Part shown: in pieces, positions 17,214-19,435 of the stretch
Layout of the letters: each line of letters begins with the position of its first letter
Position numbering within the stretch: position 1 is the stretch's first letter
From: a virus
Lineage: Duplodnaviria > Heunggongvirae > Uroviricota > Caudoviricetes
Direction: 5' to 3' (one strand)
Virus record (IMG/VR): IMGVR_UViG_2713896897_000009
DNA: 41,620 nt
Made by a program: the position numbers and the translations under genes
Notes under the pieces: generated by a model
Database searches by the model: none
What the model was told of the DNA's origin: nothing
Seen by the model: the letters and a program-made list of their open reading frames with translations, nothing else

Positions 17214-18875
17214 TTATATGAAAAAAACCGCATATTCTTTCTTTTTCGGTTCCGGGTTAAGGGACATCAGGGAGACCGCATTGAACAGCGCCATCAGCGG
17301 GTCAATTTTTCCCCGTCCACTGGCCTGTTTGGTGATAAGAATGGCGTTACCTTTAGGCTCCACCCGGGCATTGCCGACACACCAGGCCATCAGGGGCTGG
17401 TCACCATGCACCAGCACCCCTTCAGCCAGTTTGCGCTCGGTGGTTTTAATGGCCCCGCCCAGTTTCCAGCCCTGGCTTATCCCCACCACAATTCCGTCGG
17501 GGATCCCGGCTTCCGCCAGTGAATCCAGAATCTGCCCCACCCCTGACGGGTCAATACCGATATGGTCCAGTAACTCAGCCTCATGAATGCGACGCACATA
17601 TTCCGCCACTTCCGCCGTGTCATCCCCGACACGCCGGACAATGGTCATATCTCCACAGGCAACAAGATCCTGAAACCGGGACGCCTCGCTCTTCCGTCGG
17701 ACCACCGCGGTTTCATGCGCCCAGGCATGGCCCCAGCCCAGCCATTCGCGGGTCTCCCGGTCACGCCCAATCACATACATCCCCAGCAGATCATCCAGCC
17801 CTCCGCCGTCAATCCCCACCGTCACCACATCAGCACGACGCAGGATATCGTCCAGGCTGATACAACGGCCCTGCTCTTCCCAGAAATCAGCCCCCGCCCA
17901 GCGGTCAGAGCGCAGGGCAAGACCAATTTCCACATTGGCGTGTTTTGACATGAACCCCCGGAATGTCTCTTCACCGGCTTCCCGGGCTTTACGGTACTCC
18001 CGGTACAGAAAGGCCTCATCCACTGAATAGCCGAGATTCGGATTGACCATGGCGAGGTTTTCCATCAGCAGGTGAGCCCCGCTTTCCACCATTTCAGGAG
18101 GGTGTTCAAATATCACCGGCAGAAAGTGCGGATCATGAATTTTGCCGTCGCGCACATCCCGGGCGTACTGCAGTTTCTGTCTGAACACCCCGGCGGGCGG
18201 TTCATTCGACTGGGTGGTCGTATACACCACAAACCCTTCCGGGCGGGAGGCAAGGCCGCCTATGGCTTCACGTAACATGTCCTCCGCCTTGCACTGCTTG
18301 CCAAACAGCCACAACTCATCAATCAGCGTACCCACGGACTTGATACCAGACACCGTATTCGGATCGGCTGCCACCACCTTCAGGGTGGTGTCTGTCACCC
18401 TGTGGGTGATGGTCCGGATATGGGTCTGTACCTGGCAGAGGTCATCCAGATCATCGTCACGTCGTACCATATCCCGGGCAGGGTTGAAGGCGTTGGCCGC
18501 CACCTCCACAGTCGGGGCCAGAATCGTGTAACCCGCCGCCTGCCGCCAGTTCAGTAACAGCGCCGTCATCATGATCCCCGCGGCCAGCGTGGACTTCGAG
18601 TTTTTCTTGGGGATAAGGATAAAAACTTCCTTGATATGGCGTACACCGGTCTGCGCATCGTAGGAGCCAAACAGGGCCGCCACCAGGTCAAACACCCACG
18701 GTGCACAGGACTCCCCGAACGTCGGGCTACCAGGTGCATCCACAATCCGCAGTTGTTTAAAAATCGCCAGGGCATGTGCGGCCTCGTCCGGATAAATCGG
18801 ATCCGGAATAATCGACAGCCCCTTTTTCAGGCGCTCTGCCCAGTCCGGGCAGGCTGTGCTCCATACAGGTATCAT
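17214..18875 (-). CDS. Terminase large subunit
   Basis: 553 aa; Walker-A-like VFILIPKKNSKST; size and position after terS. Confidence 0.85.
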   Translation of the reverse strand: MIPVWSTACPDWAERLKKGLSIIPDPIYPDEAAHALAIFKQLRIVDAPGSPTFGESCAPWVFDLVAALFGSYDAQTGVRHIKEVFILIPKKNSKSTLAAGIMMTALLLNWRQAAGYTILAPTVEVAANAFNPARDMVRRDDDLDDLCQVQTHIRTITHRVTDTTLKVVAADPNTVSGIKSVGTLIDELWLFGKQCKAEDMLREAIGGLASRPEGFVVYTTTQSNEPPAGVFRQKLQYARDVRDGKIHDPHFLPVIFEHPPEMVESGAHLLMENLAMVNPNLGYSVDEAFLYREYRKAREAGEETFRGFMSKHANVEIGLALRSDRWAGADFWEEQGRCISLDDILRRADVVTVGIDGGGLDDLLGMYVIGRDRETREWLGWGHAWAHETAVVRRKSEASRFQDLVACGDMTIVRRVGDDTAEVAEYVRRIHEAELLDHIGIDPSGVGQILDSLAEAGIPDGIVVGISQGWKLGGAIKTTERKLAEGVLVHGDQPLMAWCVGNARVEPKGNAILITKQASGRGKIDPLMALFNAVSLMSLNPEPKKKEYAVFFI

Positions 18876-19153
18876 CCGCTTTCCTCATTATCGTTATTCA
18901 CCACCAGTCGGGGTGGCGGTGGCACCGCAAAACGGTTAGCCGCTTTTTTCGCGGCATCACCTTTTGCCGATTTTTTCCCGGTATCCCCTTTTTTATGGTG
19001 CGTGAACTGCGCCAGACGCCAGGCCGCATCCAGTGCCAGTTTCGGATCAATGCAGAGGTTTTCCACCAGGATCCGCCCCATGGCTTTCACCGGATCGGGA
19101 AGACCATCCTCCATATATTCAATACCAGGAGACATCACCGCGGACGGTGGCAT
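18872..19153 (-). CDS. Hypothetical 93-aa protein; possibly the C-terminal half of the small terminase subunit, separated from it by an in-frame TAG
   Basis: Same reading frame as the 19154..19435 ORF; ATG immediately follows TAG (..CCG TAG ATG CCA..); Lys-rich tail. Confidence 0.4.
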   Translation of the reverse strand: MPPSAVMSPGIEYMEDGLPDPVKAMGRILVENLCIDPKLALDAAWRLAQFTHHKKGDTGKKSAKGDAAKKAANRFAVPPPPRLVVNNDNEESG

Positions 19154-19435
19154 CTACGGATTGTTTTCGTCCGGCTGTGGTATTGCAGCCGCCTCACGGC
19201 GACGGGGTTTATCCTCCTGCTCTGATTTTTTCTGCCGGTAAACAGGAACCTCATCCACCTCCACCGTCTCGCATTGTTTACGGGCTATAAACGCAAGCAC
19301 CTCCGGATCTTTTGCCAGCTGCGAGCCTTTAACCCTGGCGGTCTTCGCCGAATAACCAGCGGCAATGGCTGACGCTGTTTTGTTTTTCCCGGACATGAGC
19401 GCCAGCGCAAATTTTCGTTTTTGCGTTGTCAGCAC
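19154..19435 (-). CDS. Terminase small subunit, P27-like HTH N-terminal domain
   Basis: Motif TASAIAAGYSAKTARVKGSQL typical of P27-family small terminases; located between the cos-like region and terL. Confidence 0.65.
   Translation of the reverse strand: MLTTQKRKFALALMSGKNKTASAIAAGYSAKTARVKGSQLAKDPEVLAFIARKQCETVEVDEVPVYRQKKSEQEDKPRRREAAAIPQPDENNP

Follow-up and report, generated by a model that had tools for sequence, protein, structure and literature searches.

A probable Glu94-to-amber nonsense mutation in the small-terminase gene of a defective YYZ-2008-like Escherichia coli prophage

The packaging genes and the interrupted terS frame

In the stretch of viral DNA considered here (the window, 41,620 nucleotides at its full length), the late genes follow one another in the order HNH endonuclease, terS, terL, protease/capsid fusion, portal, connector and tail genes, and J, an arrangement that matches that of Enterobacteria phage YYZ-2008 (Pankowvirus) and of many Stx-converting and other lambdoid E. 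coli prophages. The features that bear on DNA packaging are collected in Table 1. Both immediate neighbours of terS have counterparts in YYZ-2008: the HNH gene product matches that of YYZ-2008 over its full length and is annotated as an HNH endonuclease in relatives, and TerL is 99.1% identical to YYZ-2008 TerL over 553 aa.

Table 1. Coordinates of terS, its neighbours and the lesions discussed in the text (positions in the window)
Feature	Position	Strand	Description
portal gene	12693..15001	-	second lesion: internal deletion and frame change near 13916-13931
terL	17214..18875	-	553 aa, intact; Pfam TerL_ATPase and TerL_nuclease
terS 3' fragment	18872..19153	-	codons 95-187 and TGA; remainder of the linker and conserved C-terminal helical module
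amber codon	19154..19156	-	TAG replacing GAG (Glu94); base changed: 19156 (coding-strand G to T)
terS 5' fragment	19154..19435	-	codons 1-93 and premature TAG (from the ORF list and the sequence); DNA-binding helix-turn-helix domain (about aa 1-56) and the larger part of the disordered linker
AAATGTTAAC repeat cluster	19508..19631		HNH-terS intergenic region; three exact copies and the palindrome ACATGTTAACATGT
HNH endonuclease gene	19724..20089	-	121 aa, intact; Pfam HNH, 29.7 bits; upstream of the terminase genes

On the minus strand, terS runs from a GTG at 19435, which is preceded by GGAGGAGG, to a TGA at 18874..18872, and the only interruption of this frame is a TAG at 19156..19154, followed directly by an ATG at 19153..19151. 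The junction reads ...AAT CCG TAG ATG CCA CCG..., and each half comprises 93 codons. The earlier note on this DNA had described two halves in one frame split by TAG-ATG (CCG TAG ATG CCA), and its coordinates, frame and lengths are all correct. The 20 bases that lie 5' of the internal ATG, GACGAAAACAATCCGTAG, hold no Shine-Dalgarno motif. At the other end of the gene, the TGA of terS overlaps the start of terL as ATGA (18875..18872); terL possesses its own GAGGA six bases upstream of its ATG, so that it could be translated without being coupled to terS, and the premature stop in terS may have a polar effect on terL.

The two antisense ORFs that cross the junction (18636..19241 and 19033..19290, both on the plus strand) have no Pfam match, and scans for promoters and terminators over 18600..19800 gave results at chance level; from these scans, nothing appears to be hidden on the other strand. 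Upstream of terS, the intergenic region that separates it from the HNH gene holds the AAATGTTAAC repeats, all five matches to which in the 41.6-kb window lie within the cluster given in Table 1. The arrangement of these repeats is the same in three relatives, and the cluster is a candidate for the cos site or TerS recognition region.

Codon 94 in relatives and the frequency of the TAG allele

In about 1,250 complete E. coli genomes and about 100 phage records, this locus holds a single uninterrupted terS of 187 aa. When a 721-bp stretch that covers it was compared with 5,426 complete E. coli genomes, 1,253 of them gave matches, in 1,258 records and with identities of 93-99.7% among the matches listed; 95 phage records match as well, and at least 80% of the region is covered in 1,250 of the E. 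coli records and in 92 of those from phages. The copy number in genomes with a matching terS has a median of two and a maximum of eight. In every one of the annotated relatives that were opened, the gene is a single 'terminase small subunit' CDS of 561-564 bp that overlaps terL by 4 bases; the CDS of Lys8385Vzw is 609 bp long, with an upstream start.

The closest relative of the terS found in the window is that of strain UTME-9, with which it shares 585 of 586 aligned bases, the sole difference being the first base of codon 94. This codon is GAG in all three close relatives aligned (UTME-9, YYZ-2008 and UPEC-774U) and TAG in the window. The ATG that follows it corresponds to Met95 in all aligned close relatives, while the residue at this position in distant homologs is not methionine. 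The ATG is thus best read as the ancestral Met95 and not as a newly evolved start; on the same alignment, the adjacency of TAG and ATG is explained by a mutation that struck the codon preceding an existing methionine, and neither this adjacency nor the equal 93/93 split is a designed feature.

Three origins had been put forward for the split: an amber mutation in a once-continuous terS, two naturally abutting genes, or readthrough of the stop codon. The comparison that the earlier note had proposed, namely the alignment of homologs across this point and a search for a sense codon in close relatives, bears out the first of these, with both close and distant homologs being continuous and GAG standing in place of TAG in UTME-9, YYZ-2008 and UPEC-774U. 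The notion of two abutting genes finds no support, given that terS split into two separate genes was encountered in none of the close or distant homologs examined, the only split relatives being near-identical copies of the same rare allele.

The frequency of this allele was addressed by megablast with a 55-base query that carries the T at position 28, so that each 28-base seed must contain it. This TAG-centred 55-mer was found in none of the 5,426 complete E. coli genomes; the control 55-mer with GAG matched 1,603 places in 989 of the same 5,426 genomes, and the method therefore works. IMG/VR, searched with an exact 32-mer across the TAG junction, likewise gave no match. The 93-aa N-terminal product, looked up by exact match, returned 24 contigs; of the 10 listed, seven are draft contigs that all break off at one shared base within codon 94 (...CCGGA). 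The cluster sizes of the 93-aa product were consequently rejected as counts of the TAG allele, most of the listed contigs being contig ends with the start of GAG, and exact 93-aa 'partial terminase small subunit' database entries should be treated with caution as mostly contig-end artefacts. For the 87-aa ORF that gene callers predict 3' of the stop, the same kind of search returned only four contigs, one of which is a contig-start artefact, which confirms the scarcity of true TAG alleles.

Among the matches listed, true TAG alleles are present only in the NCBI assembly GCA_001514595.1 (contig BBVG01000001.1, seen in 2 samples) and in the Logan assemblies ERR162681 and SRR27751781. The first two of these are exact substrings of the window, the BBVG01000001.1 contig evidently being the origin of the window or belonging to an identical strain, and the third has 13 mismatches in 3,109 bases and an alternative 3' end of terS, with EGNG rather than EESG. 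These records bear directly on the possibility that sequencing or assembly introduced the T, in which case the true base would be G and terS would be intact. An error of this kind would leave terS one base away from an otherwise identical relative, as is seen here, but the same TAG recurs in the NCBI assembly and in two independent Logan assemblies, and in SRR27751781 it sits on a different flanking haplotype. A one-off sequencing error is unlikely because the TAG lies on two slightly different flanking haplotypes, and error in general is an extremely improbable account of the stop. The distribution of the allele instead points to one that is real and inherited, but rare.

Domain organization of TerS and the position of the stop

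The helix-turn-helix that had been placed in the 5' half is borne out by a Pfam match and by a match in fold. The N-terminal half is recognized by Pfam Terminase_2 (PF03592) with 37.9 bits against a cut-off of 26.1, over profile positions 1-57 of 141, and Terminase_2 is the only Pfam family found for terS at either E<=1 or E<=0.01, as is the case for the intact relative. Neither the intact relative nor either half of terS matched an NCBIfam family at E<=1. A PDB sequence search with terS gave weak matches to the SF6 DNA-binding domain (E 0.19-0.78), a similarity for which a fold search was needed as confirmation.

An AlphaFold2 monomer model of the intact TerS was built with the homolog alignment. 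It consists of an N-terminal domain of four helices (aa 1-56; block-mean pLDDT of 92-96 over aa 1-50), a linker of about 45 residues in which pLDDT stays below 50 across aa 61-102, and C-terminal helices at 115-125, 131-145 and 154-164, with pLDDT of 80-89 for aa 111-140. In a Foldseek search, the N-terminal domain superimposes on the SF6 small terminase (4zc3) with a TM-score of 0.84 and an rmsd of 1.6 A over 56 columns (probability 1.00), the next-ranked matches being other small terminases (3zqq, PaP3 and NV1); the C-terminal module gave no structural match in the same search. The label 'P27-type' that the gene had been given is not supported, since the P27 family (TIGR01558 / Pfam Terminase_4) is not the one recovered: Pfam returns Terminase_2 only, NCBIfam returns nothing, and the N-terminal fold is that of the SF6 G1P DNA-binding domain. 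The accurate label is a DNA-binding domain like that of SF6/SPP1 G1P, joined to a C-terminal module specific to this lineage.

Continuity of the chain extends well beyond the close relatives. In PHROG 641 (terminase small subunit, 162 positions) the N-terminal half aligns at positions 2-82 and the C-terminal half at 85-162, with E-values of 1e-33 (small-terminase membership) and, for the C-terminal half, 8e-31, and the intact relative covers positions 2-162 in one stretch. A search of a collection of 5.8 billion proteins yielded homologs of 151-170 aa at 40-50% identity and 93-97% query coverage from other Enterobacterales, namely Klebsiella, Enterobacter, Serratia, Hafnia, Morganella, Pantoea, Yokenella, Rahnella and Salmonella, and tblastn against phage records detected Burkholderia phage Bcep176, at 37% identity, and its relatives, the group as a whole lying at 35-37% over residues 2-181. 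All of the aligned homologs are single chains made up of three parts: a conserved N-terminal block that ends at about aa 50; a hypervariable middle rich in indels, at about aa 55-108, within which codon 94 falls; and a conserved C-terminal block (DP..KAM..DPKLALDAA..KKG..GKK..AAKKA..PP.LVVNN). The stop is thereby predicted to fall in a hypervariable, disordered linker between the SF6-like DNA-binding domain and the C-terminal helical module, and the latter is expected, from its position and conservation, to form the oligomer and to contact TerL.

Judged against the features of a small terminase, the window retains a helix-turn-helix domain that fits the family profile and a position directly upstream of terL, and it lacks a single chain that joins the DNA-binding domain to the C-terminal module, with a TAG standing at codon 94. 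The combination of an in-frame TAG and continuous relatives makes terS a pseudogene of Terminase_2 / PHROG 641 and not a working member of either. From the structure model, truncation would leave the DNA-binding domain on its own, followed by a floppy tail, and the part expected to oligomerise and to contact TerL would be either not translated or translated separately.

The location of the stop in a linker also gives some room to a scenario in which a host amber suppressor or leaky termination lets the UAG be decoded at a rate that supplies useful amounts of full-length TerS. Low-level natural UAG readthrough occurs in E. coli, and an amino acid inserted in the hypervariable linker would probably be tolerated. 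Programmed readthrough, one of the origins that had been proposed, is however not sustained: the stop is conserved in no relative and is therefore not a programmed signal, and its flanks are identical to those of relatives that bear GAG, so that no allele-specific stimulatory element is present. In addition, another late gene of the operon, the tail chaperone gene G (10070..10444), uses TAG as an ordinary stop, and the window holds three tRNAs in all, with anticodons CAT, TCG and TCT, none of which is a suppressor. Useful suppression of the stop is consequently very unlikely.

A TerS that works in two pieces would require that ribosomes ending at the UAG restart at the adjacent AUG, with residues 1-93 and 95-187 functioning as separate chains. 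Restart by terminating ribosomes at a UAGAUG sequence, in which stop and start abut, is mechanistically possible, and the break falls in a linker that is predicted to be disordered and is hypervariable, between modules that are independently conserved. Moreover, terS displays no further decay with respect to its intact relative, and the presence of the TAG allele on two haplotypes implies that it persisted long enough to be found on both. These points are outweighed by the lack of a split in any close or distant relative, by the occurrence of the TAG allele in 0 of 5,426 complete genomes, and by the nature of the ATG, which is the ancestral Met95 with no Shine-Dalgarno motif before it. Detachment of the DNA-binding domain would also be expected to abolish the targeted recruitment of TerL to DNA, and the portal deletion and the frame change in J, which are described below, leave no sign of selection maintaining packaging. 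Two cooperating chains thus have a very small probability, and there is a slimmer chance still that reinitiation yields the DNA-binding domain on its own along with a C-terminal module that interacts with TerL, the two still supporting or modulating packaging. Were two such modules to exist, the free DNA-binding domain could occupy the AAATGTTAAC repeats and hinder packaging by related co-resident prophages.

Packaging competence and comparison with known systems

Decay is not limited to terS. When 18 late proteins of YYZ-2008 were compared with the window by tblastn, 17 gave a single same-frame match at 85-100% identity (14 from end to end, and three short of only 1-5 terminal residues), and the portal protein was the sole exception. 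Its residues 1-315 and 400-454 match in frame -1 and residues 450-861 in frame -3, with residues about 316-399 (YYZ-2008 numbering) absent from the window, and the match to Pfam Phage_portal reaches no further than position 254 of the 321 in the profile, as opposed to 321 of 321 in YYZ-2008. A 381-nt query across the deletion junction aligned to each of its best 12 E. coli matches in two pieces spanning 657 nt, which indicates a deletion of 276 bp (92 codons) that none of these 12 matches appears to share. A common polymorphism may account for the change of frame near residue 450; in relatives, the UTME-9 portal is annotated as frameshifted and Lys8385Vzw carries two portal ORFs. A frameshift in J had been reported previously, and a change of frame is indeed present: J keeps one frame to residue 1040 and then shifts near window position 136. 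At least two packaging genes, terS and portal, carry lesions, and the doubt that the earlier note had cast on packaging competence is reasonable and is strengthened by the portal deletion, which it did not mention.

The evidence is best explained by a Glu94-to-amber nonsense mutation in the terS of a defective YYZ-2008-like E. coli prophage, a recent and ordinary pseudogene, to which a probability of about 0.9 can be assigned. What would be expected of a point-mutation pseudogene is what is found, namely a sense codon in a near-identical relative, a rare allele, and further lesions in the same prophage. The locus would originally have held one terS gene (Terminase_2 / PHROG 641) of a YYZ-2008-like lambdoid E. 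coli prophage, in which a single G-to-T transversion would have turned codon 94 from GAG (Glu) into TAG; the mutation would be recent because terS is otherwise unchanged with respect to its closest intact relative. Translation from the GTG at 19435 would then stop after 93 residues, yielding the helix-turn-helix DNA-binding domain and a disordered tail without the conserved C-terminal module, and the downstream 93-codon ORF would be the ancestral 3' part of terS. Such a TAG is a case of ordinary prophage decay, an already well-known kind of event.

In terms of annotation, the two 93-codon ORFs should be recorded as one interrupted terS pseudogene and not as two genes, and, with the portal deletion and the frame change in J, the prophage is to be scored as defective. 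It most likely cannot package its own DNA unaided, and packaging would require that both terminase and portal be supplied in trans by a related co-resident prophage. For terS, such complementation is plausible, given the median of two copies and the maximum of eight in genomes with a matching gene. The accessory genes that the prophage carries as cargo, among them sodC and three tRNAs, would then depend on a related prophage for their movement.

The nearest points of comparison are the YYZ-2008-like (Pankowvirus) lambdoid and Stx-converting prophages, whose terS (for example YP_002274186.1 and WP_016241041.1) is the same gene, at 93-99.7% DNA identity, and which display the same order of HNH, terS, terL, capsid/protease and portal and the same stop/start overlap with terL as the window. 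Their terS is continuous, with 186-187 aa and GAG at codon 94, whereas that of the window has TAG. The G1P proteins of SF6 and SPP1 (Terminase_2; PDB 4zc3, 2cmp and 3zqq) are more distant: their N-terminal helix-turn-helix is alike and, as in the TerS of the window, a C-terminal part follows after a linker, but detectable similarity is confined to the DNA-binding domain and the linker of the window TerS is much longer. A parallel for the inactivation itself is provided by prophage Sp4 of E. coli O157 Sakai, in which terS (nu1) is disrupted by an IS insertion and terL is kept (Asadulghani et al. 2009, PMC2669165). Sp4 DNA is still packaged, which has been attributed to the terminase of Sp14, with its nearly identical cos (PMC2669165), and help from a related prophage in moving a defective one has been shown for O157 Sakai (PMC2669165). 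Like the prophage in the window, Sp4 is lambdoid, with terS inactivated and terL kept; the two differ in the nature of the lesion, which is an IS insertion in Sp4 and a point nonsense mutation here.

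Changes in the portal and tail tip genes

The portal gene of the window shows two changes. When compared to its best E. coli matches, it displays a 276-bp deletion that removes approximately 92 codons, corresponding to amino acids ~316-399 of the portal of the related genome YYZ-2008, which leads to the loss of positions 254-321 of the Pfam Phage_portal domain; this deletion is absent from all 12 of the best-matching complete genomes. In addition, the reading frame switches at approximately residue 450. The switch may represent a widespread polymorphism, given that the portal of UTME-9, another of the genomes used for comparison, is annotated as frameshifted, and Lys8385Vzw carries two portal ORFs.

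The tail tip gene J matches residues 1-1040 of its UTME-9 counterpart in a single frame, while residues 1037-1086 (UTME-9 numbering) are matched in a different frame, with 52% identity, and this second frame exits the window. Such a pattern is consistent with a frameshift close to the receptor-binding end.

Features of the window
Feature	Coordinates	Strand	Details
Tail tip gene J	1..3261	-	frame change near position 136
sodC, Cu/Zn superoxide dismutase gene	about 3512..3922	+	Pfam Sod_Cu, 108.7 bits
Portal gene	12693..15001	-	deletion with its junction at about 14057..14080; switch of frame at about 13916..13931
Repeat cluster, HNH-terS intergenic region	19508..19631		AAATGTTAAC copies and palindrome
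Small ORF with TonB C-terminal domain	20463..20804	-	Pfam TonB_C, 56 bits
Three-tRNA gene cluster	25648..25899	-	anticodons CAT, TCG, TCT
C4 antisense RNA	33431..33518	-	Rfam, 78.8 bits, above gathering score
isrK Hfq-binding sRNA	33543..33619	-	Rfam, 58.7 bits, above gathering score

The terS linker and adjoining repeats

The linker region of the small terminase gene, terS, which holds the TAG in the window, is also altered in relatives, by a lesion or variant that is more widespread: P0078, a 138-aa protein, lacks residues 48-94 and was found on 32 contigs, one of them a 5.2-Mb chromosome. Its deletion fuses two ATCCGGAG repeats, joining ...AKDPE to MPP... at the same Met95. Contigs from seven independent draft assemblies (L006-L012) stop at an identical base (...AATCCGGA) within terS codon 94. 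In protein databases the resulting 'partial' proteins, exactly 93 aa long, look like products of the TAG allele; the shared contig end is probably due to a break in the assembly graph between sibling copies of the prophage.

In the region between HNH and terS, AAATGTTAAC occurs three times without mismatch, twice as a direct and once as an inverted copy, alongside the palindrome ACATGTTAACATGT. Five matches occur in the whole 41.6-kb window, all of them inside this one 124-bp stretch. The repeat layout is kept in three relatives, and the stretch is a candidate cos or TerS-binding site cluster.

Accessory, RNA and tRNA genes

The superoxide dismutase gene, an accessory gene of the prophage that is annotated as sodC in relatives, sits with tail assembly gene I on one side and J on the other, on the opposite strand. 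The TonB_C ORF, whose N-terminus is lipoprotein-like, is flanked by lysis genes and HNH, whereas some relatives carry a PerC-family regulator in its place. Both the C4 and isrK matches lie in the early/immunity region. The tRNA genes, identified as Met (ARAGORN call for CAT) and Arg (TCG and TCT), are placed upstream of the lysis region, an arrangement that is typical of Stx-phage-like lambdoid prophages.
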